Shown: in pieces, positions 2,056-29,250 of the stretch
Layout of the letters: the number at the start of each line of letters is the position of its first letter
Numbering within the stretch: the first letter of the stretch is position 1
From: Pseudomonas aeruginosa
GTDB taxonomy: Bacteria > Pseudomonadota > Gammaproteobacteria > Pseudomonadales > Pseudomonadaceae
Length of the DNA: 32,000 bases
NCBI RefSeq assembly: GCF_001457615.1
Contig: NZ_LN831024.1
Coordinates: 2,910,001 to 2,942,000, forward strand
Reading direction: 5' to 3'
Made by a program: the position numbers and the translations under genes
Notes under the pieces: generated by a model
Seen by the model: the letters and a program-made list of their open reading frames with translations, nothing else
The model's database searches: none
Told to the model about the DNA's origin: nothing

Positions 2056-2086
2056 TGTGTGGGTCCTGGATGAAGGGGTGACTGCT

Positions 2087-2132
2087 AATTCCGTATGGTT
2101 ATTTATTTATGTTTTATATTGCTTTTACGGAA
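2087..2132. promoter_or_regulatory. 8-bp perfect inverted repeat (ATTCCGTA ... TACGGAAT) bracketing a 30-nt AT-rich core in the divergent receptor/LysR promoter region
   Basis: ATTCCGTA at 2087-2094 and TACGGAAT at 2125-2132 were read directly. The spacer is ggttatttatttatgttttatattgctttt. The element lies between two divergent start codons (2055 on the minus strand, 2206 on the plus strand). The binding factor is unknown. Confidence 0.3.
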
Positions 2133-2205
2133 TAAGAGATTGCCTTTATAAAAAGCCCACGCCGTCCCCGGCAATTGCATTCGCCCGATATTTTCCATGT
2201 AGAAA

Positions 2206-3117
2206 ATGCATATCGATCTCCGCCAGCTCCGCCACTTCATCGCCCTTCACGAGCACCGCAGCTTCGTCGCCGCGGCGCTGGCGGTTAACCTTTCGCAATC
2301 GGCCTTCAGCCGCAGCATCCAGGCGCTCGAACACAGCGCTGGCTGCCGCCTGGTGGACCGCGCGGCCAAGGACCTGCGTCCGACCAAGCAGGGCCTGATC
2401 GTCCTCGAACATGCGCGCCGGCTGGTCAGCGGCGCGCACAACCTGGCCAACGAGATCGCCCTGTTCAACGGCCTGGAGGCCGGCGAACTGCGCTTCGGCG
2501 CCGGACCGGCTCCCGCCACCTGGCTGGTGCCGCGTGCGGTGGGGCGCTTCAACGTGCGTTATCCGAAGGCGCGGGTGAGTTTCCAGGTCGAACACTGGCA
2601 GGCGCTGAACCGCCGCCTGCAGGCCGAGGAGTTCGAGTTCTTCGTCGCCGACACCCGGCATTTCGAGGCCGACCCGCAATACCGGACCTCGCGCCTGCGT
2701 CCCCGGCGCTGGCATTTCTGCTGCCGCGAGGGGCATCCGCTGGCCGCTCGCGAGAGCGTTTCCGCCGAGGAGCTGTTGAGCTTCCCGCTGGCGACCAACA
2801 TCAGCCCGCCGAACATCCGCAAGGTGCTGGTGGACCTCAGCGGGCGTCCCGACTTCCGCCCGGCCATCGAGTGCGAGAACGGCCATAGCCTGCTCGGCGT
2901 GGTTCTCGCCTCGGATGCCATCGGCATCAGCAGCGGCCTCGGCGACCTGGCGCCGCCGGGACAGGGAGGCCTGCGTCCGCTGCGGGTGCGCGAGCTGCCC
3001 GACGACCTCGACGAACTGCATACCCGCTACGGCATCGTCAGCCGCGCCGGCTACAGCCTGTCGCCGCTGGCGGAGGCGATGATCGACGAGCTGAAGCGGG
3101 TCGACGACGCCACCTGA
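2206..3117 (+). CDS. LysR-family transcriptional regulator
   Basis: 303-aa ORF. The N-terminus MHIDLRQLRHFIALHEHRSFVAAALAVNLSQSAFSRSIQALE is a typical LTTR winged-HTH. The gene is divergent from the receptor gene and sits upstream of the sulfatase. Confidence 0.9.
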   Translation: MHIDLRQLRHFIALHEHRSFVAAALAVNLSQSAFSRSIQALEHSAGCRLVDRAAKDLRPTKQGLIVLEHARRLVSGAHNLANEIALFNGLEAGELRFGAGPAPATWLVPRAVGRFNVRYPKARVSFQVEHWQALNRRLQAEEFEFFVADTRHFEADPQYRTSRLRPRRWHFCCREGHPLAARESVSAEELLSFPLATNISPPNIRKVLVDLSGRPDFRPAIECENGHSLLGVVLASDAIGISSGLGDLAPPGQGGLRPLRVRELPDDLDELHTRYGIVSRAGYSLSPLAEAMIDELKRVDDAT

Positions 3118-3213
3118 ATTGCGTCGCACGCATGCCAACTATGTTCCGAATGCGCTTGCCGCCGGACGCGGCGGACCGCGAAATGAAGCGTCGTTTCCTT
3201 TTCGCGAGCCGTC

Positions 3214-4830
3214 ATGAGCCAGCCCAAGCCGATCCGCAACGTCCTCTACATCATGTGCGACCAACTGCGTCGCGATTACCTGTCCTGCTACGGCCATCCC
3301 TATCTGCACACGCCGAACATCGACCGCCTGGCCGCGGAGGGCGTGCGCTTCGCCCGTGCCTATACCCAGGGCACCATCTGCGGGCCGTCGCGGATGTCCT
3401 CGTACACCGGGCGCTACGTCAGCAGCCACCAGGTGGCCTGGAACGCGGTGCCGCTGCCGCTGGAGGAGCTGACCCTGGGCGACTACCTGCGCGCCGCGGG
3501 AGTCCGCACCGCGCTGGTCGGCAAGACCCACGCCACGGCCAACCTGGAAGGCATGCGGCGGCTCGGCATCGATCCGGCCAGCGCGCGCGGCGCGGCCCTC
3601 GCCGAAGCCGGCTTCGAGCCCTACGACCGCAATGACGGGGTCTACCCGGATGACCCGGCCTTCGCCGACAAGCGCGAAAGCGCGCCCTACACCCACTACC
3701 TGCGGCGCCTCGGCTTCACCGGCGACAACCCCTGGCACGACTGGGCCAACGCCGCCGCCGGCGCCGACGGGGAAATCCTCAGCGGCTGGCGGATGCGCCA
3801 TGCCGGATTGCCGACACGCTTGCCGGAGGCGCACAGCGAGACCGCCTATACCACCCGTCGCGCCATGGATTTCATCGACGAGCAGGGCGAGCGTCCCTGG
3901 TGCCTGCACCTGTCCTACATCAAGCCGCACTGGCCCTACATCGCGCCGGCGCCGTACCACGCGCTGTACCGCGCCGACCAGGTGCTCCCGGCGCTACGCG
4001 CGGCGCCCGGCGAAGAAAGCGACCACCCGGTGTACCGCGCCTTCCGCGAACATCGCGAGAGCCTCAATTTCTCCCGCGAAGACGTGCGCCGGCAGGTGAT
4101 ACCTACCTACATGGGGCTGATCCGCCAGGTCGACGACCAGCTCGGCCGGCTCTTCCAGCACATGCGCGCCAGCGGGCGCTGGGACGATACCCTGATCGTC
4201 TTCACCAGTGACCATGGCGATTTCCTCGGCGACCACGGCCTGGGCGAGAAGGAGTTCCTCCTCGAGTCGGCGGTGGGCGTGCCGTTGCTGATCCGCGATC
4301 CGCGCCCCGAGGCGGACGCCACCCGCGGCCGGGTGGAGGAGGCGCTGGTGCAGTCCATCGACGTACTGCCGAGCATCCTCGAAGCCTTCGCCGTCGAGCC
4401 CGCCAGCCATCGCATCGAGGGCCGTTCGCTGCTGCCCTTCGTCCATGGCGCGCCGCCGGCGGACTGGCGCCGCTACGCCATCGCCGAGTACGACTACGCC
4501 TTCCAGGCGCCGGCGCGGGAGCGCCTGGGCCGACCCATCGATGCTTGCCGCATGTACATGGTGCGCAGCGAGCGCTGGAAGTACATCGCCTACGACGGCT
4601 TCCGCGCCCAACTGTTCGACCTTGCCAGCGACGCCGGCGAATTGCGCGACCTCGGCGCCGACCCGGCGCATGCGGCGGTGCGCGAGGCCCATGCCGGGAT
4701 GCTGTTCGACTGGCTGCGCGGGCTGAAGCGGCGGACTACCATCAGCAACGCGGAGATCGACCTGCGCGGCCAGGCGTTCCGCTACGGCGAGCCGGAAGGC
4801 GGGCGCCTGGTACCGATCGGTCTCTGGTGA
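3214..4830 (+). CDS. Sulfatase (formylglycine-type arylsulfatase/choline-sulfatase family)
   Basis: 538-aa ORF. The N-terminal region is NVLYIMCDQLRRDYLSCYGHP. The sulfatase signature C-x-P-S-R appears as TICGPSRMSSYTGR. A later FTSDHGD motif is typical of the family. Confidence 0.9.
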   Translation: MSQPKPIRNVLYIMCDQLRRDYLSCYGHPYLHTPNIDRLAAEGVRFARAYTQGTICGPSRMSSYTGRYVSSHQVAWNAVPLPLEELTLGDYLRAAGVRTALVGKTHATANLEGMRRLGIDPASARGAALAEAGFEPYDRNDGVYPDDPAFADKRESAPYTHYLRRLGFTGDNPWHDWANAAAGADGEILSGWRMRHAGLPTRLPEAHSETAYTTRRAMDFIDEQGERPWCLHLSYIKPHWPYIAPAPYHALYRADQVLPALRAAPGEESDHPVYRAFREHRESLNFSREDVRRQVIPTYMGLIRQVDDQLGRLFQHMRASGRWDDTLIVFTSDHGDFLGDHGLGEKEFLLESAVGVPLLIRDPRPEADATRGRVEEALVQSIDVLPSILEAFAVEPASHRIEGRSLLPFVHGAPPADWRRYAIAEYDYAFQAPARERLGRPIDACRMYMVRSERWKYIAYDGFRAQLFDLASDAGELRDLGADPAHAAVREAHAGMLFDWLRGLKRRTTISNAEIDLRGQAFRYGEPEGGRLVPIGLW

Positions 4831-5736
4831 TCAGCGGCTGGCCTTGCGATAGGCCCCCGGCTGCTGCCCGGTGGCCTTGTGGAAGGCACGGGTGAAGGCG
4901 GCGGTGGACTGGTAGCCGACCGCCGCCGCGACCTCGGCGACGCTGGCGTCGGCGCGCAGCAGGGCGCAGGCGCGGTGCATGCGCAGGGCCAGCAGGACCT
5001 GCCCCGGCGACTGACCGCTGAGTTCGTTGAAGCGCTTGAAGAAGGCCGAGCGCGAGAGTCCGGTGCGTTCGGCCATCTGTTCCAGGCTCCAGGGCTGTTC
5101 GGGTGCCTCGATCAGCGCTTCCAGCAGGCCGGCGAACTGCGGCTGGCGTGCCAGTGCCACCAGGCCGCCGAGGGTCGGGTTGTCGAGCACCTGCTGGCGC
5201 AACACGTAGAGGAACAGCAGGTGGCTGAGGCGCTCCAGCAGAACCGGCGACGGCGCCGGCTGGCGGCGGCACTCGTCGACGATCAGGGCGAACAGGCGTC
5301 GCGCCGCGTCCAGCGCCGGATCGCCGGCGCGCAGGATCAGCCAGTCGGGCAGGGCGTCGACGATCAGCCCGGACAATCCCGAATGGAAGTGGAAGAACCC
5401 GCAGACCAGGCCGGCACCGTCCGCCGCGTTCCACTCCAGCGCCTGCATTTCGCCACGCGGCTGGCAGCGCGCGGCCTCGGCGGTGGCCTCGCTGGACAGG
5501 CGGAACTCGACGTCGCGCAGGAAGAACAGCGCGTCGCCGCTGTCCAGTCGCCAGCCCCGGGCGCTTCCGGCGACGTGCGCCCAGCAGTGTCCCTGCACCA
5601 CCAGGTGGAAGCTGGCACGCGCCAGACCGTGGGTGGAGGCATGCCAGCCGCCGCAGTAGCGACCGACATGGAACAGGCTGGTGTCGACTTCGAGGCTGTC
5701 TAATAACCAATCGACAAGGGGGTTGGACGAATTCAT
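4831..5736 (-). CDS. AraC-family transcriptional regulator (cupin-like N-terminal domain plus C-terminal HTH)
   Basis: 301-aa ORF. The C-terminus WSLEQMAERTGLSRSAFFKRFNELSGQSPGQVLLALRMHRACALLR...VAAAVGYQSTAAFTRAFHKATGQQPGAYRK is a classic AraC double HTH. Its stop codon directly abuts the sulfatase stop (4830/4831). Confidence 0.85.
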   Translation of the reverse strand: MNSSNPLVDWLLDSLEVDTSLFHVGRYCGGWHASTHGLARASFHLVVQGHCWAHVAGSARGWRLDSGDALFFLRDVEFRLSSEATAEAARCQPRGEMQALEWNAADGAGLVCGFFHFHSGLSGLIVDALPDWLILRAGDPALDAARRLFALIVDECRRQPAPSPVLLERLSHLLFLYVLRQQVLDNPTLGGLVALARQPQFAGLLEALIEAPEQPWSLEQMAERTGLSRSAFFKRFNELSGQSPGQVLLALRMHRACALLRADASVAEVAAAVGYQSTAAFTRAFHKATGQQPGAYRKASR

Positions 5737-7518: not shown

Positions 7519-8351
7519 GCGAGGCGCTCCTCGACGCTCGCGGGATCGCCCTCGGCTATCCGCGCGGTGCCGGCTGGCAGGCGGTGCTCGGCGATTTCGA
7601 ATTGCGCCTGGGCGCCGGCGAGGTGGTCTCGATCCTCGGTCCCAGCGGCGTCGGCAAGTCCAGCCTGCTGCGCGTGCTGGCCGGCCTGCAGGAGCCGGCC
7701 GCCGGCAGCGTGCGGGTACTCGGCGAGCCCCTGCGCGGACCGCATCCGGGCGTCGCGGTGGCGTTCCAGGACCCCAGCCTGCTGCCCTGGCTGAACCTGG
7801 AGAAGAACGTCGCCTTCGGCCTCGATTTCGCCCGCCAGCCGCACCTCGACGCGGCCACCCGCCAGGCCCGCGTCGACCAGGCGATCGCCGCGGTCGGCCT
7901 GGAGCACGCCCGTGCCCGCTACCCGGCGCAACTCTCCGGCGGCATGGCCCAGCGCACCGCGCTGGCCCGCTGCCTGGCGCGGCAGCCGAAGGTGCTGCTG
8001 CTCGACGAACCTTTCGGCGCGCTGGACGAAGTGACCCGCGCCGACATGCAGCAGCTGCTGCTGCGGGCGATCCACGAGCGCGGCACCGCCGTGGTCCTGA
8101 TCACCCACGATATCGACGAGGCCCTGCTGCTCTCCGAACGCATCCTGCTACTGGGTGACAGCCCGGCGCGGACCCTCGGCGAGTGGCGCATCGACCTGCC
8201 GCAGCCACGCGCGGAGCTGGTCGAGGAACTGGGCGCGTTGCGCATCGAGATCCTGAAAACCCTACGGCGGGCGAGCCGCACCCATGCCCATCCCATCGCT
8301 CAGCCGGAGGCCTCCCATGTGCCTGGACGACCCGACCCATTCCCGACGTGA
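7515..8351 (+). CDS. ABC transporter ATP-binding protein (NitT/TauT, SsuB-like family)
   Basis: The sequence starts MSEALLDARGIALGY. It carries Walker A GPSGVGKSS, the ABC signature LSGGMAQR and Walker B VLLLDEPFGALD. The start overlaps the upstream stop (ATGA). The ORF-track version from 6873 is an upstream extension inside the previous gene. Confidence 0.9.
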   Translation: MSEALLDARGIALGYPRGAGWQAVLGDFELRLGAGEVVSILGPSGVGKSSLLRVLAGLQEPAAGSVRVLGEPLRGPHPGVAVAFQDPSLLPWLNLEKNVAFGLDFARQPHLDAATRQARVDQAIAAVGLEHARARYPAQLSGGMAQRTALARCLARQPKVLLLDEPFGALDEVTRADMQQLLLRAIHERGTAVVLITHDIDEALLLSERILLLGDSPARTLGEWRIDLPQPRAELVEELGALRIEILKTLRRASRTHAHPIAQPEASHVPGRPDPFPT

Positions 8352-11972: not shown

Positions 11973-13208
11973 CTAGAGCCAGGCGTGCCGCGGTGGCTTC
12001 ACCCCATTCAACTGGTAGTTGCCGATGGCATGGTATTTCCAGCGCACCGGGTCATGCAGGGTGTGGGTGCGGGCGTTGCGCCAGTGGCGGTCGAGATTGA
12101 GTTCCTCCAGGGTCGAGCGCGTGCCGGCCAGTTCGAACAGCCGGTTGGCGGCGAGCAGGGCGGCTTCGGTGGTGAGCACCTTGGCCTCGGCCACGGCGAT
12201 CGAGGCGGCGGCCACGCTCTCCTCGTCGGGGGCGGCGAGCGCCGCTTCGATGGCGTCGCCCGCCAGGTCGAGCACGGCTTCCGCGGCGCGCACGCGGATG
12301 CGCAGGTCGCCGACCTGCTGGATGGTGTAGGGGTCTTCCCAGGCATGCTGCTGGTTGGCGTCTATCCATGGCCGCGCGTGGCGGCGCACCTGCTGCACGG
12401 TCTCGGCGAGGATGCCACGGGCGATGCCGGCGTCGATGGCGGCCTGGATGAACTGCGATACGGCGCCGGCGGCGGTGGGGCGGTCGAAGGCGCGGTGCAC
12501 CGGGATGACGTGCTCGGCCGGCACCCGCACGTTGTCCAGGATGACGGTGCCGCTGGCGGTGGTGCGCTGGCCGAAGCCGGACCAGTCGTCGATCACCGTC
12601 AGCCCCGGCGCGTCGCGCGGGATGAACGCCAGGTGCGCGCGCTGCTCGGCGTCGAGGCCGACGGCCGGTACCCAGTGGGCGAGCAGGGCGCCGCTCGAAT
12701 AGAACTTGCGGCCGTCGATGCGGAACCCGTCGCCATCCGCCAGGACTCGTGTCTGGAATTCGGCGACGGTACGGCTGTGGCGTTCGGAGAAGGCGTTGCC
12801 GAAGCGCACGCCGTCTAGCACCAGGCCGTAGAAGAAGCGTTTCTGCTCCTCGCTGCCGTCCAGGCGCAAATGGTCGAGCACCGCCAGGTGGTTCTGCGGC
12901 AACTGCGCCAGGGACGGGTCTACCGCGGCGATGGTCTTCAGTACTTCGGCCAGGGTCCGGTAGCCGACCTCGGCGCCGCCGTAGGCGCGCGGTACGCTGA
13001 TGCCCCATAGGCCGCTCTGCGAGAAGGCTTCCAGTTCGGCCACCGGCAGCCGGCGCTGGCGGTCGCGCAGCGAGGCTTCCTCGGCGAACAGCCCGGCCAG
13101 TTCGCGGGCGACGCGGATCGCCTCGGCGTCGTCGGCGATGCGCCGGGCCGGGGTCCGTGGCAGCGGTTGCCGATAGGGATCGGCGGCGTTCTTTTCCAGT
13201 GCGCTCAT
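11973..13208 (-). CDS. SfnB-family sulfur-acquisition oxidoreductase (acyl-CoA-dehydrogenase fold, DszC-like)
   Basis: 411-aa ORF. It contains ...IDDWSGFGQRTTASGTVILDNVRVP... and a C-terminal ...LNLDRHWRNARTHTLHDPVRWKYHAIGNYQLNG, typical of the SfnB/DszC-type group. It contains only Met1 and no Cys. Confidence 0.9.
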   Translation of the reverse strand: MSALEKNAADPYRQPLPRTPARRIADDAEAIRVARELAGLFAEEASLRDRQRRLPVAELEAFSQSGLWGISVPRAYGGAEVGYRTLAEVLKTIAAVDPSLAQLPQNHLAVLDHLRLDGSEEQKRFFYGLVLDGVRFGNAFSERHSRTVAEFQTRVLADGDGFRIDGRKFYSSGALLAHWVPAVGLDAEQRAHLAFIPRDAPGLTVIDDWSGFGQRTTASGTVILDNVRVPAEHVIPVHRAFDRPTAAGAVSQFIQAAIDAGIARGILAETVQQVRRHARPWIDANQQHAWEDPYTIQQVGDLRIRVRAAEAVLDLAGDAIEAALAAPDEESVAAASIAVAEAKVLTTEAALLAANRLFELAGTRSTLEELNLDRHWRNARTHTLHDPVRWKYHAIGNYQLNGVKPPRHAWL

Positions 13209-24084: not shown

Positions 24085-25337
24085 TGGGACGCCGCGAAGC
24101 ATTTCCGGAGAACGCCGGGGCCGCTGCGTCGGCCGTGGCGCCGCGGCTGCCGCTGAGTGCGCTGCTGGCGATGGCGATGTCCGGCTTCGTCGCCATTCTC
24201 AGCGAAACCCTGCCGGCCGGCCTGCTGCCGCAAATCGGCGCGGGGCTGGCGGTCAGCGAGGCGCTGGCCGGGCAACTGGTCAGCGTCTACGCCTTGGGTT
24301 CGCTACTGGCCGCGCTGCCGGCGGCGAGCCTGACCCAGGGCTGGCGGCGGCGCCGGGTGCTGCTGCTGGCGCTGCTGATCTTCTTCGTCTGCAACAGCCT
24401 AACCGCCGTTTCCTCGGATTACCGCCTGACCCTGCTGGCGCGCTTCGGCAGCGGCGTCGCCGCCGGCCTCGCCTGGGGCCTGCTGGCCGGCTACGCGCGG
24501 CGCCTGGTGCCGCCGGAGCAGCAGGGGCGGGCGTTGGCGGTGGCCATGCTCGGTGCGCCGCTGGCGCTGTCGCTCGGCGTTCCGCTGGGCACCTGGCTGG
24601 GCGGCCTGCTCGGCTGGCGCTGGGCCTTCGGCCTGTTGTCGCTGACCGCGCTGCTGCTGGTCGGCTGGGTGCTGCGCAGCGTGCCGGACTTCCCTGGCCA
24701 GCCGGCCGGGCGGCGCCTGCGTCTGCTCGGGGTGCTGCGCACGCCGGGCGTGCGTCCGGTATTGCTGGTGATCGTCGCCTGGGTGCTGGCGCACAACATC
24801 CTCTACACCTATATCGCGCCGTTCCTCGCCAAGGTCGGCCTGGGCGCCTCGGTGGACCTGGCCCTGCTGGTATTCGGCAGCGCCGCGGTGGCGGGAATCT
24901 GGCTGGTCGGCGTGCTGGTCGACCGGCATTTGCGGCGGATGGTCCTGGCCAGCCTGGCGCTGTTCGCCGTAGCGGCGCTGGCGCTGTGCCTGGGCGCTCG
25001 CTGGAGCTGGCTGGCGTTCGCCGGCCTGGCCCTCTGGGGGCTGACGTTCGGTGGCGCGGCGACGCTGCTGCAGACCGCCTCGGCGGACGCCGCCGGGGAG
25101 GGCGCCGACCTGGCCCAGTCGATGATCGTGGTGGCCTGGAACCTGGCCATCGCCGGCGGCGGAGCGTTGGGCGGCATGGTGTTGCAGCGTTGGGGCAGCG
25201 AGATGCTGCCCTGGACCCTGCTGCCGTTGATCGGCCTGGCCGCGGCGCTGGCCTGGGGCAATGCCGCGCACGCTTTCCGCGTCGGCCCGCGCGACTTCCG
25301 CAGGGCATCGCCCGAGCACCGGAAAGCGGCGCAATAG
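24084..25337 (+). CDS. MFS transporter
   Basis: The ATG at 24084 overlaps the upstream stop (TGATG). The product is about 417 aa and has multiple hydrophobic helices (LSALLAMAMSGFVAILSETLPAGLLPQIG..., an MFS-type loop GWRRRRVLLLALL). The ORF-track version from 23565 is an upstream extension. Confidence 0.8.
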   Translation: MGRREAFPENAGAAASAVAPRLPLSALLAMAMSGFVAILSETLPAGLLPQIGAGLAVSEALAGQLVSVYALGSLLAALPAASLTQGWRRRRVLLLALLIFFVCNSLTAVSSDYRLTLLARFGSGVAAGLAWGLLAGYARRLVPPEQQGRALAVAMLGAPLALSLGVPLGTWLGGLLGWRWAFGLLSLTALLLVGWVLRSVPDFPGQPAGRRLRLLGVLRTPGVRPVLLVIVAWVLAHNILYTYIAPFLAKVGLGASVDLALLVFGSAAVAGIWLVGVLVDRHLRRMVLASLALFAVAALALCLGARWSWLAFAGLALWGLTFGGAATLLQTASADAAGEGADLAQSMIVVAWNLAIAGGGALGGMVLQRWGSEMLPWTLLPLIGLAAALAWGNAAHAFRVGPRDFRRASPEHRKAAQ

Positions 25338-25538
25338 ACGGGGCTGCGCCCGGCAAGGGGAAAAAGGCTGCGGGTCTTAGAACGTTTATTCACCAGGGTT
25401 ATTTGGATAGGTCCGTTTCGAATATCCATCGCGTCGAAATACCGGCTGTGACGATGCGTTCCTCCGCCATACAGCGGAATCCGCTGTCATTGCGCCGAAC
25501 ATCTTCGCTGTCTCGCCGCTAGCCACCATGCAGCGCCC

Positions 25539-25554
25539 GGCTCGGCTGTTGCAC
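25539..25554 (+). promoter_or_regulatory. Weak sigma54-like -24/-12 candidate upstream of the Met-rich gene
   Basis: GGCTCGGCTGTTGCA has GG (25539-40) and GC (25551-52) 10 nt apart. The -12 box TTGCA is perfect and the -24 box is GGCTC, one mismatch from GGCAC. Chance matches are common in GC-rich DNA. Confidence 0.25.
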
Positions 25555-25561
25555 CGGCATC

Positions 25562-25589
25562 TTGCCGGTGCGTCGGCGCTGCCTAGAAT
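25562..25589 (+). promoter_or_regulatory. Sigma70-like promoter candidate upstream of the Met-rich gene
   Basis: TTGCCG (25562-67), a 16-nt spacer, then TAGAAT (25584-89), about 48 nt upstream of the ATG at 25637. Confidence 0.3.
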
Positions 25590-25636
25590 CGGCCCCATTC
25601 GCACCTACCCCCGCTTCGCCTACAGGAGTTACCGCC

Positions 25637-26140
25637 ATGATGAATGCCATGCAGATGCCGATGAACATGAATGCCGCCATACCGATGATGCCCATGATGG
25701 GCATGCCGATGATGATGGCGACCATGCAGTGCGAAACGATGGACGACGGCATGCTGTGCAAGATGATGCCGGCGATGGGTATGGACATGGGCCAGTTCCG
25801 CAACAGCGCCGAGATGATGGCGATGATGATGAACTGCGGCATGCCCATGATGATGCAGTGCGGCAACCTGGCGATGATGGGCATGTCCCAGGCCTGCATG
25901 GCGATGATGCCGACGATGGGCATGGGGATGGGCATGCCGATGATGGGCATGGCTCCGATGAAGTGCATGATGGAGTGCTCCATGCAGGGCGACGCCATGC
26001 ACTGCAGGATGATGCCGATGCAGGGCATGGACATGGAGATGTTCAAGAACTGCTGCATGCTGATGGCGAAGATGATGGAGTGCGGCATGCCGATGATGAT
26101 GAGTTGCAACGGCATGCCGATGATGTGCTGCACCTGCTGA
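25637..26140 (+). CDS. Hyper-methionine/cysteine-rich protein of unknown function (167 aa; by hand count about 66 Met and 15 Cys)
   Basis: AGGAG at 25624-25628 lies 8 nt upstream of the ATG at 25637. The product is MMNAMQMPMNMNAAIPMMPMMGMPMMMATMQCETMDDGMLCKMMPAMGMDMGQFRNSAEMMAMMMNCGMPMMMQCGNLAMMGMSQACMAMMPTMGMGMGMPMMGMAPMKCMMECSMQGDAMHCRMMPMQGMDMEMFKNCCMLMAKMMECGMPMMMSCNGMPMMCCTC. Only 7 of about 100 non-ATG codons end in A/T, so the host-typical GC3 bias holds in this frame. The alternative frames would need the disfavoured GAT and CAT codons. A perfect terminator starts 20 nt after the stop. Confidence 0.75.
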   Translation: MMNAMQMPMNMNAAIPMMPMMGMPMMMATMQCETMDDGMLCKMMPAMGMDMGQFRNSAEMMAMMMNCGMPMMMQCGNLAMMGMSQACMAMMPTMGMGMGMPMMGMAPMKCMMECSMQGDAMHCRMMPMQGMDMEMFKNCCMLMAKMMECGMPMMMSCNGMPMMCCTC

Positions 26141-26159
26141 TCCGTCGCCGGATGGAAAA

Positions 26160-26186
26160 GGCCCGCCCGGGATGACCGGGCGGGCC
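26160..26186. terminator. Bidirectional rho-independent terminator between convergent genes
   Basis: GGCCCGCCCGG (26160-26170), loop GATGA, then CCGGGCGGGCC (26176-26186). This is an 11-bp perfect GC stem. It is flanked by AAAA on the left and TTTCTT on the right, so each strand sees a stem followed by a U-rich tail. Confidence 0.8.
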
Positions 26187-26215
26187 TTTCTTCGTCCATG
26201 GCAGCAGGGCCGGGG

Positions 26216-26848
26216 TCAGTCCAGGCGCTCCGGGTAGGTCATCACCAGGTACGCCAGGGCTTCGCTATCGGCGGGGTTGCGGTAGCTGTGCGGCTGGTCG
26301 GCGTAGAACAGGATCGAGTCGCCGGTGGCGAGCAGGAAACGCTCTTCGTTGACCCGCACTTCCAGTACCCCCTGCGCCACCACCAGGTTCTCCTGGGTGC
26401 CGGGGGCGTGGGCCTCGGCGTCTTCCTGGCCGAGGCCGCGCAGGCGCAGTTCGTAGAACTCCACCTGGCGCGCCACATCGAAGGGGAACAGCGCGCGGCT
26501 GGTGAAGGCGCCGTCGGCGCTGACCAGGCGCTTGCTCTGTTGCGCCGGCAGCACGGCGACGCCGGCGAAGGCGCGATCGTCGAGGAAGGCTGCCACCGAC
26601 ACCTTGAGACCCTGGGCGATCTTGCACAGCACCTTGATCGACGGCACGCTGCGCCCGGACTCGATCTGCGCCAGCATCGCCCGGCTGACACCGGAAATCC
26701 GCGCCAGGGCGTCCAGCGAGAGATTGCGCTTGCCGCGCAGGCGCAGCAGGTTGTGGGCGACGCGCTGGCCAATCAGATCATCGGGTTCGGTATGCACGCC
26801 GGCGGCCAGTTCCAGGTGGGCAACGCCATCGCTGGCGGGCAGGTTCAT
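26216..26848 (-). CDS. XRE-family HTH plus cupin-domain transcriptional regulator
   Basis: 210-aa ORF. The HTH_3 region is IGQRVAHNLLRLRGKRNLSLDALARISGVSRAMLAQIESGRSVPSIKVLCKIAQGLKVSVAAFL. The C-terminal cupin contains ...HAPGTQENLVVAQGVLEVRVNEERFLLATGDSILFYADQPHSYRN. Confidence 0.9.
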   Translation of the reverse strand: MNLPASDGVAHLELAAGVHTEPDDLIGQRVAHNLLRLRGKRNLSLDALARISGVSRAMLAQIESGRSVPSIKVLCKIAQGLKVSVAAFLDDRAFAGVAVLPAQQSKRLVSADGAFTSRALFPFDVARQVEFYELRLRGLGQEDAEAHAPGTQENLVVAQGVLEVRVNEERFLLATGDSILFYADQPHSYRNPADSEALAYLVMTYPERLD

Positions 26849-26851
26849 CGG

Positions 26852-27010
26852 TCAGGCCCGGCGGCTGCGCTCGTCGTGCCTGGCTGGCGGTTGCGGCACG
26901 GCGTAGCCGGCCCGCCAGGCGTACACCGCCCACATCATTTCGCCCAGGCGGCGTGCCTGGCGGCGCGAGCGGTAGCGGGCGAAATCGATGACGTTGTCGG
27001 TGCGGTCCAT
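26852..27010 (-). CDS. 52-aa basic small protein, translationally coupled to the XRE-cupin regulator
   Basis: The product is MDRTDNVIDFARYRSRRQARRLGEMMWAVYAWRAGYAVPQPPARHDERSRRA. GAGGA lies 7 nt upstream of the ATG at 27010. About 90% of codons end in G/C. Its stop TGA lies 3 nt before the regulator ATG (TGAccgATG). The ORF-track start at 27073 has no SD and lies in the AT-rich island. Confidence 0.5.
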   Translation of the reverse strand: MDRTDNVIDFARYRSRRQARRLGEMMWAVYAWRAGYAVPQPPARHDERSRRA

Positions 27011-27070
27011 GAGGCATTCCTCGGGCGGCGGGTTCGATGGCAGCCAGACTATCCCTTCGCCGCTTAGAGC

Positions 27071-27198
27071 CATAAATACTAAGTTTTTATTTATTAATTC
27101 ACTTTTGTGCTTACAAGGAACGCCGAACCGTACGGAGCAGCATATTTATATTCTTTAAAGATATTTAAATTAATTTTCTTATTCCAATAAATTAAAGA
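27071..27198. promoter_or_regulatory. Strongly AT-rich divergent promoter island
   Basis: About 130 bp of AT-dominated sequence in a GC-rich genome (cataaatactaagtttttatttattaattcacttttgtgc ... catatttatattctttaaagatatttaaattaattttcttattccaataaattaaag). It contains the near-palindrome TTTAAAGATATTTAAA (27154-27169, 14/16 symmetric). It separates the small-ORF/regulator operon from the tauD-like operon. Confidence 0.5.
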
Positions 27199-27299
27199 CT
27201 CTCGCGTACCTGCCGACCAATCGGCGCGCCGCACCGAATCCATGCCGCCTTGCGCGGTATCTCGTGCCTGGCGTGTCCGGGCTTGCGTGGGAGTCAGCG

Positions 27300-28187
27300 A
27301 TGTCCGTTTCCCTTCCGGCGCCAGCGCGCGCCGACGTTCCTTTGCAGATCCGTGCCCTCGATGCCGCATTCGGCGCCGAGGTGCTCGGCCTCGACCTCGG
27401 GTTGCCCCTGGCCGCCGAGGACTTCCGCCGTATCCACCGGGCGCACCTGGACCACCATGTGCTGGTGTTCCGCGAGCAGCGCATCACCCCGGCGCAGCAG
27501 ATCGCCTTCAGCCGGCGCTTCGGTGAGTTGCAGATCCATGTGCTGAAGCAGTTCCTGCTCCCAGGGCATCCGGAGATCCTCATCGTTTCCAACATCGTCG
27601 AGAACGGCCAGCCCATCGGTCTCGGCGATGCCGGCAAGTTCTGGCACTCCGACCTTTCCTATAAGGAGCTGCCGAGCCTCGGCTCGATGCTGCATGCCCA
27701 GGAGCTGCCGGAGGAGGGCGGCGATACTCTGTTCGCCGACATGCACAAGGCCTGGGACAGCCTGCCGGAAGCCCTGCGCAAGGCCATCGAGGGACGCACG
27801 GCGGCGCATTCCTATACCGCCCGCTACAGCGAACCGCGCTTCGAGGGCAACTGGCGGCCGACCCTGAGCGCCGCCCAGCTCGCCGAGGTGCGCGAAGTGG
27901 TCCATCCGATCGTGCGCACCCACCCGGAAAGTGGGCGCAAGGGGCTGTTCGTCAGCGAAGGTTTCACCACCCGCATCGTCGGCCTGCCGGCCGACGAGAG
28001 CGCCCAACTGCTCGCCGAGCTGTATGCGCACAGCGTGCGCCCCGAGCACATCTACCGGCATCGCTGGCAGGCGCATGACCTGGTGTTCTGGGACAACCGC
28101 TCGCTGATCCATCTCGCCGGCGGTTGCCCGGCCCACCTGCGGCGCAAGCTCTACCGCACCACCATCCAGGGCGACGCGCCGTTCTGA
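27300..28187 (+). CDS. TauD/TfdA-family Fe(II)/2-oxoglutarate-dependent dioxygenase
   Basis: The ATG at 27300 follows GGGAG (27289-93). The sequence begins MSVSLPAPARADVPLQIRALDAAFGAEVLGLDL. The iron-binding H-x-D appears in KFWHSDLSY, followed by ...GGDTLFADM... and a C-terminal ...WDNRSLIHLA..., all typical of TauD-like enzymes. The ORF-track GTG at 27264 is less likely. Confidence 0.9.
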   Translation: MSVSLPAPARADVPLQIRALDAAFGAEVLGLDLGLPLAAEDFRRIHRAHLDHHVLVFREQRITPAQQIAFSRRFGELQIHVLKQFLLPGHPEILIVSNIVENGQPIGLGDAGKFWHSDLSYKELPSLGSMLHAQELPEEGGDTLFADMHKAWDSLPEALRKAIEGRTAAHSYTARYSEPRFEGNWRPTLSAAQLAEVREVVHPIVRTHPESGRKGLFVSEGFTTRIVGLPADESAQLLAELYAHSVRPEHIYRHRWQAHDLVFWDNRSLIHLAGGCPAHLRRKLYRTTIQGDAPF

Positions 28188-28227
28188 CGACGGCACGCGC
28201 TTCCCCCTTTTCGCCAGGAGCGTTTCC

Positions 28228-29250
28228 ATGAACCGCATTCCCCGTTTCACCCGCCTGGTCGCCGCGCTCGGCCTGGGCCTGAGCCTCGCCACCACGCTGC
28301 TGGCCAGCCGGCCGGCGCAGGCCGAGGGCGAGATCCGCATCGCCGAGCAGTTCGGCATCGTCTACCTGCTGCTCAACGTGGTCCGCGACCAGCGCCTGAT
28401 CGAAAAGCACGGCCAGGCCGAGGGCCTGCAAATCAAGGTCGACTGGACCCAACTGTCCGGCGGCGCGGCGGTCAACGATGCGCTGCTGTCCGGGGCGATC
28501 GATATCGCCGGTGCCGGCGTCGGTCCGCTGCTGACCATCTGGGACCGTACCCGCGGGCGCCAGAACGTCAAGGCGGTGGCTTCGCTGGGCAACTTCCCCT
28601 ACTACCTGCTGAGCAACGACCCGCGGGTCAGGAGCATCGCCGACTTCGGCGCCGGGGATCGCATCGCCGTGCCGGCGGTGGGGGTTTCGGTGCAGTCGCG
28701 CTTCCTCCAGTACGCCGCGGCGAAGCAGTGGGGCGACAAGCAGTTCGACCGCCTCGACAAGTACACCGTGGCGCTGCCGCATCCGGACGCCACCGCCGCG
28801 CTGGTGGCCGGCGGCACCGAGCTGACCGGGCATTTCTCCAACCCGCCGTTCCAGGACCAGGCGCTGGCCAACCCGAAGGTCCACGTGGTGCTCGACAGCT
28901 ACGAGCTGCTGGGGCCGAATTCGCCGACCGTGCTGTTCGCCACGGAGAAGTTCCGCCAGGACAACCCGAAGACCTACCGGGCCTTCGTCGAGGCGCTGAA
29001 GGAAGCGGCGGCCTTCGCCCAGAACGACAAGGCGGCCGCCGCCGATACCTATATCCGGGTGACCGGGGCGAAGATCGACCGAGCCGCGCTGCTGAAGATC
29101 ATCGCCAATCCGCAGGTGGAGTTCAGCGTCACGCCGAAGAACACCTATCCGCTGGCGGAGTTTCTCTACCGGGTCGGTGCGATCCGCAACAAGCCGGCCT
29201 CCTGGCAGGACTATTTCTTCCAGGACGGCGCGCCGTTGCAGGGGAGTTGA
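28228..29250 (+). CDS. Periplasmic substrate-binding protein (NitT/TauT, SsuA/TauA-like) with a Sec signal peptide
   Basis: 340-aa ORF. The signal peptide is MNRIPRFTRLVAALGLGLSLATTLLASRPAQAEG. The protein contains no Cys and no Met other than Met1. Confidence 0.9.
   Translation: MNRIPRFTRLVAALGLGLSLATTLLASRPAQAEGEIRIAEQFGIVYLLLNVVRDQRLIEKHGQAEGLQIKVDWTQLSGGAAVNDALLSGAIDIAGAGVGPLLTIWDRTRGRQNVKAVASLGNFPYYLLSNDPRVRSIADFGAGDRIAVPAVGVSVQSRFLQYAAAKQWGDKQFDRLDKYTVALPHPDATAALVAGGTELTGHFSNPPFQDQALANPKVHVVLDSYELLGPNSPTVLFATEKFRQDNPKTYRAFVEALKEAAAFAQNDKAAAADTYIRVTGAKIDRAALLKIIANPQVEFSVTPKNTYPLAEFLYRVGAIRNKPASWQDYFFQDGAPLQGS

Follow-up and report, generated by a model that had tools for sequence, protein, structure and literature searches.

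We analysed a stretch of 32,000 nt from Pseudomonas aeruginosa (NZ_LN831024.1, positions 2,910,001 to 2,942,000; hereafter the window) and observed a gene encoding a protein of extreme methionine and cysteine content, followed by a convergent regulatory gene, a small ORF and a divergent group of sulfur-scavenging genes. In window coordinates, these genes are as follows:

25637–26140, + strand: gene for a Met/Cys-rich protein, PA2312a in PAO1, 167 codons plus TGA, called from its homologues and from purifying selection on a single frame
26216–26848, − strand: transcription regulator with an XRE-family HTH and a cupin domain (Pfam), PA2312 in PAO1, convergent with the Met-rich gene
26852–27010, − strand: small conserved ORF of ~52 aa, probably PA2311 in PAO1, first gene of the regulator operon
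27264–29250, + strand: divergent genes for a TauD-like dioxygenase and an SsuA-like binding protein (NCBIfam taurine dioxygenase and SsuA family), then ABC transporter genes

The 18.7-kDa PA2312a product has 66 Met (39.5%), 15 Cys (9.0%), 15 Gly, 13 Ala and 12 Pro among its 167 residues, with a single His and no Val, Trp or Tyr. This exact count agrees with a preliminary description of the DNA, made from the letters alone, which had put Met at about 66 and Cys at 15 and noted the same three missing residues. Each chain carries 81 sulfur atoms, or 14% sulfur by mass. The base composition of the window predicts 1.5 ATG per 167 codons, so the Met count lies far beyond chance. Since Tandem Repeats Finder reported only short, imperfect periodicities of 6–27 nt, the gene is not a simple repeat array; it consists of an internal duplication of a ~60-aa domain, the halves being 54% identical.

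The PAO1 annotation gives PA2312a as function unknown, and its length and position match Tables S3 and S4 of Trouillon et al., where it spans 2550619–2551122 (504 bp), convergent with PA2312. Gene counting had suggested PA2313, an assignment that we rejected on these coordinates. A biofilm and tobramycin phenotype described for a PA2313::IS mutant (PMC9262955) consequently cannot be attributed to the Met-rich ORF. In the literature searched we found nothing on PA2312a, or on the combination of methionine-rich, cupin and XRE. The convergent regulator, the small ORF and the existing PAO1 annotation all lie beyond the preliminary description.

We then asked whether the Met-rich frame is the one translated. 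The preliminary description had read the GC3 bias of the non-ATG codons, with seven exceptions, as the mark of a real gene. The count is exact, with G or C as the third base in 94 of 102 non-ATG codons (the exceptions being 7 sense codons and the TGA stop), but GC3 does not discriminate, because an antisense Ile-rich frame shares the third codon positions and has a GC3 of 0.87. An open frame is equally uninformative, as ATG-rich DNA is automatically stop-free in four of the five other frames. Both arguments were dropped as proof, and the choice was settled by a six-frame comparison of 41 orthologues. This gave a pN/pS of 0.31 in the Met-rich frame against 0.75–1.3 in the other five, and judged by this measure purifying selection acts on the Met-rich frame only. 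Met is replaced across orthologues mainly by Ala (71 cells), Leu (52) and Val (40), which arise through first- or second-position changes, and by Ile in just 18; antisense coding would make Ile the synonymous-type replacement, and its low count speaks for the Met frame. Length variants among P. aeruginosa isolates are all in frame, and natural in-frame deletions are tolerated in the linker and inside the domains.

These data bear on the alternative that PA2312a is not a gene and is a by-product of ATG-rich DNA in which the antisense Ile-rich frame or an Asp/His-rich frame is translated. The alternative frames are indeed open, the antisense frame has its high GC3, and RefSeq annotates the antisense frame in two rhizobial plasmids. 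However, openness follows automatically from the ATG-rich sequence, the pN/pS of 0.31 is confined to the Met frame, and conservation extends to the promoter, the Shine-Dalgarno site and the terminator on the + strand. Down to 40% identity, orthologues keep the pattern of amino acids, the placing of Cys and the internally duplicated domain, and the terminator hairpin would lie in the path of an antisense ORF, which would have to read through it. The comparative analysis has in our judgment already refuted this alternative, to which we give almost no weight, and the same comparison shows 25637–26140 to be a genuine protein-coding gene. The preliminary description had named a broken frame in orthologues, with another frame preserved, among the findings that would speak against it; the ORF is intact in 50 of 50 genome loci and 5 of 5 plasmid loci. 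Its view that this is a real gene and no repeat artefact is supported.

The non-coding signals around PA2312a were located as follows:

25377–25429, + strand: distal conserved non-coding element, TTAGAnCGtTTATT...GGTTATTT...GAATATCCAT, in 25 Pseudomonas loci
25464–25496, + strand: upstream palindromic element, candidate operator or activator site, with the core ACAGCGGA-A-TCCGCTGT at 25471–25487
25562–25589, + strand: predicted proximal sigma-70-type promoter, TTGCCG-N16-TAGAAT, with conserved blocks
25624–25628, + strand: Shine-Dalgarno AGGAG, 8 nt before the ATG, read from the sequence
26150–26197, no strand assigned: GC-rich hairpin between the convergent genes, −42 kcal/mol, z = −6.0
27069–27100, − strand: AT-rich palindrome ATAAATAa-N7-GTATTTAT, candidate autoregulatory operator in the divergent region between the regulator operon and the TauD-like operon

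The AGGAG lies at the ideal spacing, as had been claimed, and GGAG or GGGAG at this position is conserved in 22 Pseudomonas loci together with the start context. The predicted promoter is the sole promoter-like site found in 25300–27300; its CTTG and CTAGAAT blocks line up without shifts in 22 Pseudomonas loci, although no other part of the flanks can be aligned. The half-sites CGYnAT...ATnRCG of the upstream palindrome are conserved in the aligned Pseudomonas loci, and in Rhizobium and Shinella the Met-rich gene is preceded, at a distance of ~160 nt, by a related palindrome, ATARCGGA-N6-TCCGTTAT. The distal element is kept in its 25 loci despite differing upstream genes and could be a second promoter or a regulator-binding site. 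These conserved upstream sites sit ~75–220 nt upstream of the PA2312a −35, a layout that looks more like activation than simple repression. No Rfam family reached its gathering score in 25200–27300, which gives no riboswitch or other leader RNA element. Two paralogues, PA0535 (fold 15.7, compared with 333 at its top site) and PA1359 (fold 1.75), have DAP-seq peaks covering the start of PA2312a; we judged both peaks weak or non-specific.

The preliminary description had also noted an 11-bp GC-stem terminator after the stop, and the hairpin bears this out. Its core pairs GGCCCGCCCGG (26160–26170) with CCGGGCGGGCC (26176–26186) across a 5-nt loop, it separates the stop codons of the Met-rich gene (26140) and the regulator (26216), and none of 200 shuffled sequences was as stable. 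The hairpin is likely a bidirectional terminator. It was missed by a simple scan for terminators, probably as its stem reaches into the T tract.

Next, we characterized the protein and its relatives. Orthologues occur in ~50 species of Pseudomonas and other proteobacteria, as well as in Sorangium and on megaplasmids of rhizobia, with a Met content of 35–47% (median 40.6%) and a Cys content of 4–13%. As ATG has no synonymous codon, the maintenance of so high a median indicates selection on the composition as such. When 1.84 billion cluster representatives were searched exhaustively with a profile, only 38 clusters related to PA2312a emerged. No Pfam family matched at E ≤ 10 and no NCBIfam family at E ≤ 1, in keeping with the earlier statement that the protein could not be assigned to a known family. 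A tblastn search of plasmids with the Met-rich protein gave no match; this is probably an artefact of low-complexity filtering, since Met-rich ORFs adjoin the regulator on those plasmids. By its composition PA2312a falls within the MRPs of Le, Liang, Gladyshev et al. (>20% Met, >50 aa; PMC3514235), which are a compositional list and not a family of known role, so that the label describes composition only. The MRPs characterised there span 21–33% Met, all below PA2312a, with calmodulin (7%) included for comparison only; Nostoc 'FeNos'/MRP1 (33% Met, 12% Cys) has a very similar Met/Cys ratio, compared by composition alone.

An AF2 model (pLDDT 78, domain cores >90) predicts a disordered Met/Pro/Gly N-terminus followed by two ~60-aa beta-beta-alpha-beta-beta domains with a Met/Gly/Pro linker between them. 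In the model, Met fills nearly every hydrophobic position of the ~60-aa domain as well as the disordered tails. Foldseek found no fold match for the model in the PDB (best E-value 0.16, TM-scores ≤ 0.29). At the N-terminus, MMNAMQMPMNMNAAIPMMPMMGMP, a basic n-region is lacking, Pro, Gly and Asn break up the sequence, and disorder is predicted. By inspection it contains no signal peptide, from which we infer a cytoplasmic location for PA2312a and its unannotated family. Amid otherwise low-complexity sequence, the N-terminal motif MMNAMQMPM is kept from Pseudomonas to Sorangium, which suggests an interaction or degradation motif. Cysteines are strongly conserved, 2–4 per domain, with C41, C157 and C165 invariant or nearly so; they persist in Met-poor relatives (P0078, P0079) and, in the model, come from different secondary-structure elements. 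This pattern would fit a specific metal or redox site better than bulk composition alone. A folded domain with a nearly all-Met core, if the model is right, would be of interest for Met oxidation, selenomethionine labelling and soft-metal binding.

The convergent regulator PA2312 has the XRE-cupin architecture, an N-terminal HTH_3 (3.6e-13) and a C-terminal Cupin_2 (5.2e-11) in Pfam, and keeps His/Glu/His at the cupin motif positions as read from alignments. Its best PDB relative is 1Y9Q (phmmer, E = 1e-25, 93.5 bits), and against E. coli SutR it shows 32% identity over 174 aa (BLASTP, pairwise E-value 2e-28, 92 bits), compared with ~31 bits against PuuR. It aligns with SutR and 1Y9Q over its full length, and SutR (YdcN) and VC1968 (1Y9Q) share its HTH_3 and cupin architecture and each have a sulfur or methionine connection: SutR is listed as a regulator of sulfur metabolism (PMC5210515), and the Vibrio cholerae structure is reported to hold D-methionine in its cupin pocket (PMC7901475). 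XRE-cupin regulators are shown in that work to be local regulators that answer to metabolites of the pathway they control. Orthology with SutR is not established at 32% identity, and sutR lies beside ydcO and rlhA, without a Met-rich neighbour. PA2312 itself was insoluble in DAP-seq; PA2312a and sulfur compounds offer a concrete candidate target and a candidate ligand class for this orphan regulator.

The small ORF carries the motif N-V-I-D-F-x-x-Y-R-x-R-R-Q-A and has no Pfam or NCBIfam match. By tblastn it lies directly upstream of the regulator in ~40 Pseudomonas loci, and the motif is also found in Magnetospirillum, Pseudoxanthomonas, Steroidobacter, Rhizobium and Mesorhizobium. Each locus has a single copy of the AT-rich palindrome, in every case upstream of the small ORF (24 loci, strict pattern), scoring 30–50 bits with a position-weight matrix against <25 bits elsewhere in each locus. 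The same matrix found no such site upstream of the Met-rich gene, so direct control of PA2312a by PA2312 is suggested by synteny only.

To what extent do these genes travel together? The regulator adjoins the Met-rich gene in 47 of 58 loci from Gamma-, Beta- and Alphaproteobacteria and Myxococcota (Sorangium, Magnetospirillum, Phyllobacterium, Pseudoxanthomonas and Steroidobacter among them) and in all 5 rhizobial plasmid loci. Neighbour clustering of 55 loci identified the regulator as the only neighbour recurring across taxa. The MFS transporter, beta-lactamase-like protein, LysR regulator and FAD oxidoreductase of the window are not conserved beside it, and regulator paralogues at ≤38% identity have no Met-rich partner. 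Gene order across these loci shows the Met-rich gene, the convergent XRE-cupin regulator and the small upstream ORF to be a conserved module.

The preliminary description had placed the gene in a sulfur-scavenging, sulfur-poor neighbourhood. This is true in the window: upstream lie a sulfatase, an NMT1-type binding protein, a luciferase-like monooxygenase and two SfnB/DszC-like proteins, and Met plus Cys amount to 0.2% and 0.5% of the two SfnB/DszC-like products (acyl-CoA-dehydrogenase fold), 1.3% of the TauD-like product and 0.3% of the SsuA-like product. The P. aeruginosa neighbours are, however, not universally conserved, and the sulfur-scavenging context at 27264–29250 is species-specific. 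Of 61 loci, 18 have organosulfur-scavenging genes beside the module, in at least six arrangements across Gamma- and Alphaproteobacteria, and the other 43 have none. The genes comprise ssuD, cysE, msuE, tauA, sulfonate ABC transporters, TauD-like and LLM monooxygenase genes, in Shinella, Rhizobium, P. aeruginosa, P. delhiensis and several fluorescens-group species. The divergent region with the regulator's candidate operator is shared with the TauD/SsuA operon in P. aeruginosa and with a sulfonate ABC operon in Shinella. The kinship of PA2312 with SutR and Met-bound 1Y9Q and the recurrence of organosulfur genes in distant taxa link the module to sulfur.

Our preferred reading, held tentatively and at somewhat less than even confidence, is that PA2312a is a cytoplasmic Met/Cys reserve or sulfur-status device under a sulfur-amino-acid-sensing regulator. 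PA2312 would sense a sulfur amino acid or a related metabolite and set transcription of PA2312a from its strong, conserved promoter. With sulfur amino acids in good supply, the cell would make the protein, which would buffer or store Met and Cys and could be degraded once sulfur runs short, the same condition that would induce the neighbouring sulfonate and taurine scavenging genes; in this view the module would be an arm of the cellular sulfur economy. Among the functions first proposed for the protein, that of a sulfur reserve or buffer gains contextual support from the regulator's relatives and the organosulfur neighbours. Plant sulfur-rich seed storage proteins (delta-zeins with ~24% Met, 2S albumins) likewise concentrate Met and Cys, with composition apparently the selected trait. 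In contrast to these, PA2312a is bacterial and probably cytoplasmic, has nearly twice the Met content and a dedicated metabolite-type regulator, and shows no sequence relationship to them (Pfam scan, E ≤ 10). DZS18 is among the listed Met-rich proteins (PMC3514235).

Several observations count against storage. In LB, which contains methionine, PA2312a is nevertheless weakly expressed (base mean ~75), and PA2312 barely or not at all. Most loci have no scavenging genes nearby, the upstream sites have an activation-like layout with no copy of the candidate PA2312 operator, and the domain cysteines are conserved even in Met-poor members.

A related alternative is that the protein gauges sulfur status, or acts as a regulatory partner, and is not a store. 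With 81 sulfur residues per chain, its synthesis would collapse first when charging of Met-tRNA or Cys-tRNA falls; the protein would report this, possibly by binding the XRE-cupin regulator or the small ORF product, and the regulator would then control itself and, where present, the divergent sulfonate-scavenging operon. The strict conservation of the three-gene module, a regulator 54–87% identical across phyla, the candidate operator region shared with scavenging operons and the conserved MMNAMQMPM are all in line with this. It is nonetheless pure inference, with no precedent for a folded 18-kDa protein in such a role, and the sulfonate operon is missing from most loci; we regard it as quite improbable.

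Metal binding, proposed earlier as Cu(I)/Ag(I) coordination, provides a further alternative. PA2312a would be a cytoplasmic soft-metal binder (Cu(I), Ag(I), Cd or Hg), metallothionein- or copper-storage-like, with Cys thiolates and Met thioethers as sites and the Met/Pro/Gly tails as MxM/MxxM capture motifs. The near-invariant cysteines that persist in Met-poor relatives, the MxM, MMxM and MPMMGM repeats that dominate the disordered regions, and the confident two-domain model, consistent with a defined site, all argue for it, as does the regulator's His/Glu/His set, cupin domains often binding metals. However, the proposal gained nothing from the loci: copper, silver, mercury or cadmium resistance, efflux or chaperone genes recur in none of the 61, and the regulator is not of the MerR, ArsR or CsoR type, an ArsR-like gene appearing at one metagenomic locus. 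The protein is also missing from a review of P. aeruginosa copper homeostasis proteins. PA2312a, being small, Cys-rich and probably cytoplasmic, resembles bacterial metallothioneins and Csp, with conserved cysteines that could ligate soft metals, but those proteins are Cys-dominated with little Met. PA2312a has 9% Cys against 39.5% Met and lacks Cys-dominated CxC/CxxC clusters or a Cys-lined four-helix bundle, the fold of Csp; its two predicted beta-beta-alpha-beta-beta copies match nothing in the PDB. Met thioether ligation is typical of periplasmic copper proteins, not cytoplasmic ones. CusF, CopC/PcoC and PcoE/SilE are exported, use Met and His ligands and sit in cop/pco/cus/sil clusters; PA2312a has one His, no signal peptide by inspection, and no cop, cus or sil genes in any locus. 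Metal-homeostasis genes and metal-sensing regulators are not adjacent, and we consider metal binding unlikely.

The last alternative is an oxidant sink, sacrificial or catalytic, in which HOCl, chloramines or H2O2 would oxidise surface Met to the sulfoxide, which cytoplasmic MsrA/MsrB would reduce again. The precedent is MrpX of Azospira suillum, a Met-rich periplasmic peptide that works with MsrP/YedY; it is exported and encoded beside the periplasmic methionine sulfoxide reductase, under a sigma/anti-sigma pair. PA2312a, which would be its cytoplasmic analogue, shares the extreme Met content, the small size and a proposed role through Met sulfur chemistry rather than catalysis, but differs in having 9% Cys, a predicted folded two-domain core, an XRE-cupin regulator and no signal peptide by inspection, and so would not be where HOCl first strikes. 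A Met content of ~40% is the property exploited in MrpX and in Met-rich oxidation substrates (PMC3514235), and the model places Met in disordered, solvent-exposed tails as well as in domain cores. Against this, msr, yedYZ/msrPQ and oxidative-stress genes do not recur beside the module: the 61 loci yielded no recurring methionine-sulfoxide-reductase gene, the 55 clustered loci no Msr linkage, and the Pfam listings of four contexts no Msr domain. The 15 Cys would make the protein prone to irreversible cross-linking. PA2311, PA2312 and PA2312a are missing from supplementary tables of the P. aeruginosa HOCl/HOSCN transcriptome, a weak point as the tables may not cover all genes. The MrpX-like role proposed in the preliminary description thus gains nothing, and we consider it very doubtful.

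Bacterial sulfur-starvation responses are known for the opposite strategy, the use of sulfur-poor scavenging proteins. We think the chances are close to, but just short of, even that a three-gene sulfur-economy module exists in at least four lineages (Alpha-, Beta- and Gammaproteobacteria and Myxococcota), with the Met-rich protein as the first known bacterial sulfur amino-acid store or as a translational Met/Cys gauge feeding back on scavenging genes. If true, a sulfur-rich protein with its own regulator would add to sulfur homeostasis the storage or buffer arm that has been missing, or would represent a novel type of nutrient gauge. With neither a Pfam nor an NCBIfam model, the family is invisible to current resources; its genes are often unannotated or annotated on the wrong strand, and they break short-read assemblies. 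Besides P. aeruginosa, the family is present in many plant-associated Pseudomonas and rhizobia.

We observed that the ORF at window 25637-26140 (forward strand) runs from ATG to TGA over 167 codons and encodes a protein with 66 Met (39.5%), 15 Cys (9.0%), 15 Gly, 13 Ala and 12 Pro; Val, Trp and Tyr do not occur in the translation. From the base composition of the window, 1.5 ATG would be expected per 167 codons, versus the 66 seen. The mature chain has a mass of 18.7 kDa, a pI of 4.6 and 81 sulfur atoms, or 14% sulfur by mass. G or C ends 94 of the 102 non-ATG codons, the exceptions being seven sense codons and the stop. A Shine-Dalgarno AGGAG, read from the sequence, lies 8 nt before the ATG, and a hairpin with an 11-bp G+C core (core 26160-26186, whole 26150-26197) follows the stop and folds at -42 kcal/mol (z = -6.0). 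The preliminary description was thus accurate on composition, length, AGGAG, the seven GC3 exceptions and the 11-bp stem terminator. It had also held that the ORF is no repeat artefact, and Tandem Repeats Finder returned just short, imperfect periodicities; a ~60-aa unit has instead been duplicated within the protein, giving halves that are 54% identical.

Codon bias and ORF length do not decide which frame is coding, because the antisense Ile-rich frame has its third positions in common with the Met-rich frame (GC3 0.87) and ATG-rich DNA is automatically stop-free in four of the five other frames, both in the window and at every homologous locus. The counts behind the GC3 argument of the preliminary description were exact, but the argument does not discriminate. 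We assembled relatives by a protein search (36) and by a scan with one genome per species (50 loci), and the Met-rich frame was unbroken in all 50 loci. Pooled over 41 distinct orthologues, pN/pS was 0.31 in this frame, versus 0.75-1.31 in the five others. Most replacements of Met, via first- or second-position changes, were to Ala (71 cells), Leu (52) or Val (40). Just 18 of 2640 cells have Ile, which would be the replacement counted as 'synonymous' were the antisense frame coding. The intact frame, pN/pS and replacement pattern rule out that the ORF is not a gene or that another frame is translated. Together with the conserved start and promoter context, they uphold the initial call of a real gene, and the ORF is a genuine gene. 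Among P. aeruginosa isolates the protein varies in length (157, 159, 163 and 169 aa), every variant being in frame. Variants from clinical and environmental isolates (P0037, P0039, P0040 and P0044, in the cluster of P0001) were found, and variation in this species includes expansion or contraction of linker Gly-Met repeats, a 10-aa deletion in domain 2 and a Cys-to-Tyr change. Since Met is kept in 86% of its cells across Pseudomonas, though ATG has no synonymous codon, the Met-rich composition itself is under selection.

The protein matched no Pfam or NCBIfam model, in line with the earlier remark that no family could be assigned, and when 1.84 billion cluster representatives were searched exhaustively with a profile, only 38 related clusters emerged. 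By its coordinates in the supplement to Trouillon et al. 2021 (PMC7901475), the gene is PAO1 PA2312a and not PA2313. It lies there at 2550619-2551122 (504 bp) and is annotated as a hypothetical protein of 'function unknown'; we found no paper mentioning PA2312a. This unannotated family systematically misleads gene callers. In at least two rhizobial megaplasmids, RefSeq calls an antisense Ile-rich shadow ORF a 'hypothetical protein' and passes over the Met-rich ORF on the opposite strand, the ORF pairs being:
L061 (rhizobial megaplasmid): 4673-5023, plus strand, versus 4678-5115, minus strand
L062 (Shinella megaplasmid): 7683-8162, plus strand, versus 7655-8056, minus strand
At another locus (L060), the RefSeq annotation covers no more of the Met-rich ORF than a 52-aa fragment. 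In databases, many entries are likewise incomplete and stop at contig ends, which is why we think that the ATG-rich stretch probably breaks short-read assemblies.

Across the family, Met makes up 35-47% (median 40.6%) and Cys 4-13% of residues. The family has two forms. The Pseudomonas type has two domains, and its ends, MMNAMQMPM... and ...CNGMPMMCCTC, are conserved; a single-domain form, with 30-60 residues of MPMMGGM-like repeats before the domain, occurs in Sorangium, rhizobia, Magnetospirillum and metagenomes. An AlphaFold2 model built on a 13-sequence alignment gave a mean pLDDT of 78 (>90 in both domain cores), with a predicted beta-beta-alpha-beta-beta fold in each copy and disorder at residues 1-21 and in the linker (94-104). 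The second domain modelled alone reached a pLDDT of 67, poorer than in the full protein, which suggests that the two domains pack together and that single-domain forms may dimerise. Foldseek found no PDB relative of the predicted fold (best E-value 0.16). Hydrophobic positions of the strands and helix face are nearly all Met, versus Leu, Val or Ile in a few peripheral Met-poor relatives (P0078, P0079), and 2-4 Cys per domain are kept even in these. The N-terminus has neither a basic n-region nor an uninterrupted hydrophobic stretch, so we infer a cytoplasmic location. The nonapeptide MMNAMQMPM (residues 1-9, window 25637-25665) or close variants of it are common to Pseudomonas, Sorangium, Magnetospirillum and Phyllobacterium. 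It is conserved despite disordered, low-complexity surroundings, and may mediate degradation or an interaction, or reflect a translation-initiation constraint.

Next to the Met-rich gene lie two further genes and several conserved non-coding elements:
25377-25429: distal conserved non-coding block upstream of the Met-rich gene
25464-25496: palindromic region in a conserved non-coding block upstream of the Met-rich gene
25562-25589, plus strand: sigma-70-type promoter of the Met-rich gene, TTGCCG-N16-TAGAAT
26216-26848, minus strand: XRE-HTH and cupin regulator (PAO1 PA2312), immediately downstream of and convergent with the Met-rich gene
26852-27010, minus strand: small ORF of ~52 aa directly upstream of the regulator, with the motif NVIDFxxYRxRRQA
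27069-27100: AT-rich palindrome ATAAATAa-N7-GTATTTAT in front of the small ORF

A tblastn comparison placed a regulator orthologue (54-87% identity) beside the Met-rich gene in 47 of 58 loci, including those of Sorangium, Magnetospirillum, Phyllobacterium, Steroidobacter and Pseudoxanthomonas; no other window neighbour was conserved there. In all-against-all clustering of neighbouring ORFs, solely the Met-rich gene and the regulator, with antisense shadows, recurred across taxa. Searching plasmids with the regulator returned orthologues at 46-55% identity on Rhizobium, Shinella, Mesorhizobium and Microvirga megaplasmids, with a convergent Met-rich ORF in all five loci examined; more distant regulator paralogues (Ralstonia, Alteromonas), with identities up to 38%, had no Met-rich partner beside them. 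These comparisons show that the Met-rich gene is tied to the regulator. The small ORF, which has no Pfam or NCBIfam match, is kept in ~40 Pseudomonas loci and recognisable in Magnetospirillum, Pseudoxanthomonas, Steroidobacter, Rhizobium and Mesorhizobium. Because it is conserved directly upstream of the regulator, the three genes form a module. Rhizobial versions of the small ORF, and not those of Pseudomonas, have a hydrophobic, possibly membrane-spanning tail.

Promoter, Shine-Dalgarno and start context of the Met-rich gene stay in register across Pseudomonas species with otherwise unalignable flanks. The two conserved non-coding blocks are situated far upstream of this promoter. The distal block could hold a second promoter (TTAGAA-N17-TATTTG), and a palindrome related to the 25464-25496 element is found upstream of rhizobial Met-rich genes. 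The palindrome at 27069-27100 occurs exactly once per Pseudomonas locus and is a plausible autoregulatory operator; a longer, 73-aa reading of the small ORF from 27073 is probably spurious, as its start falls inside this conserved element. The palindrome sits in the 190-bp region between the regulator operon and a divergent TauD-like/SsuA-like/ABC operon and, from this position, could control both in P. aeruginosa. No copy lies upstream of the Met-rich gene. Published DAP-seq tables list weak peaks of the XRE-cupin paralogues PA0535 (fold 15.7) and PA1359 (fold 1.75) at PAO1 2550651-2551318 (window ~25441-26108), with summits at the 5' end of PA2312a and inside the coding region, respectively; the two could be cross-recognising an XRE-cupin operator or binding non-specifically.

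Several observations link the module to sulfur, the selection on Met-rich composition noted above being one of them. The best solved relative of the regulator is V. cholerae 1Y9Q (E = 1e-25), whose cupin pocket is described with D-methionine bound, and P. aeruginosa XRE-cupin regulators are local, specialised and responsive to metabolites of their own pathway; in the same study, the PA2312 protein proved insoluble in DAP-seq and its gene showed no expression in LB (Trouillon et al., PMC7901475). E. coli SutR, curated as a sulfur-metabolism regulator (PMC5210515), is 32% identical over the full length. The Shinella module is surrounded by ssuD, cysE, a 2-oxoglutarate (TauD-like) oxygenase, a sulfonate ABC transporter, msuE and a sulfurtransferase, the regulator operon being divergent from the transporter operon as in P. 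aeruginosa. R. leguminosarum and Rhizobium sp. NXC14 have tauABC, msuE and LLM monooxygenases, P. delhiensis an SsuD homologue, and a dozen fluorescens-group species NMT1/SsuA-type ABC transporters in several arrangements. At least one organosulfur-scavenging gene lies within 6-7 kb in 18 of 61 loci, a raw count without a genome-wide background rate. The neighbours specific to P. aeruginosa are not universally conserved among these loci. Organosulfur-scavenging genes recur in six or more arrangements and in two classes, which is more than common descent of a single locus would explain.

Our best reading, which we hold tentatively, is that the regulator would respond to a sulfur amino acid, or to a metabolite related to one, by setting how strongly the Met-rich gene is expressed. 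The product would then serve as a Met/Cys reserve or buffer in the cytoplasm, built up when sulfur is plentiful and broken down when it is short, and would complement the neighbouring scavenging genes, which are expressed under shortage. Against this reading, most loci have no sulfur context, the Met-rich gene lacks the operator seen at the promoter of the regulator, the upstream architecture of the Met-rich gene resembles activation, and PA2312a is weakly expressed in LB (base mean ~75). The conserved Cys positions also hint at a specific metal or redox site. Together with the MxM motifs they favour soft-metal binding, which we consider unlikely, as metal genes appear in no context, no metal-type regulator is present and the gene is missing from a P. 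aeruginosa copper review. Alternatively, synthesis of so demanding a protein might report Met/Cys supply to the regulator; the tight module and an operator in the region common to the divergent sulfonate operons are compatible with such a gauge of sulfur status, which we judge improbable. That the protein is an oxidant sink, as its composition alone would suggest, seems about as improbable: no msr gene is linked to the module, and the gene's absence from the supplementary tables of an HOCl/HOSCN transcriptome is weak evidence to the same effect. Likeness to MrpX, plant sulfur-rich storage proteins, metallothioneins and Csp proteins is in composition only, their testable defining features not being found here, and the same compositional likeness holds for catalogued Met-rich proteins. 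We rate the protein as outside the known kinds of system, its function being one that we infer.

A metagenomic contig (L006) carries the Met-rich gene without an XRE-cupin partner and in an alternative regulatory pairing:
3087-3767, minus strand: ArsR-type (HTH_20) regulator, divergent from the Met-rich gene
1921-3090, minus strand: M50-family peptidase gene (weak match), following the regulator

Within the window, the sulfur-poor, sulfur-scavenging surroundings described initially were confirmed. Two adjacent genes encode SfnB/DszC-like proteins of the acyl-CoA-dehydrogenase fold:
11973-13208, minus strand: 1 Met and 0 Cys in 411 residues
13239-14498, minus strand: 1 Met and 1 Cys in 419 residues
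This is extreme sulfur economy, as expected of sulfate-starvation-induced proteins. The pair adjoins genes for a luciferase-like monooxygenase, an NMT1-type binding protein and a sulfatase.
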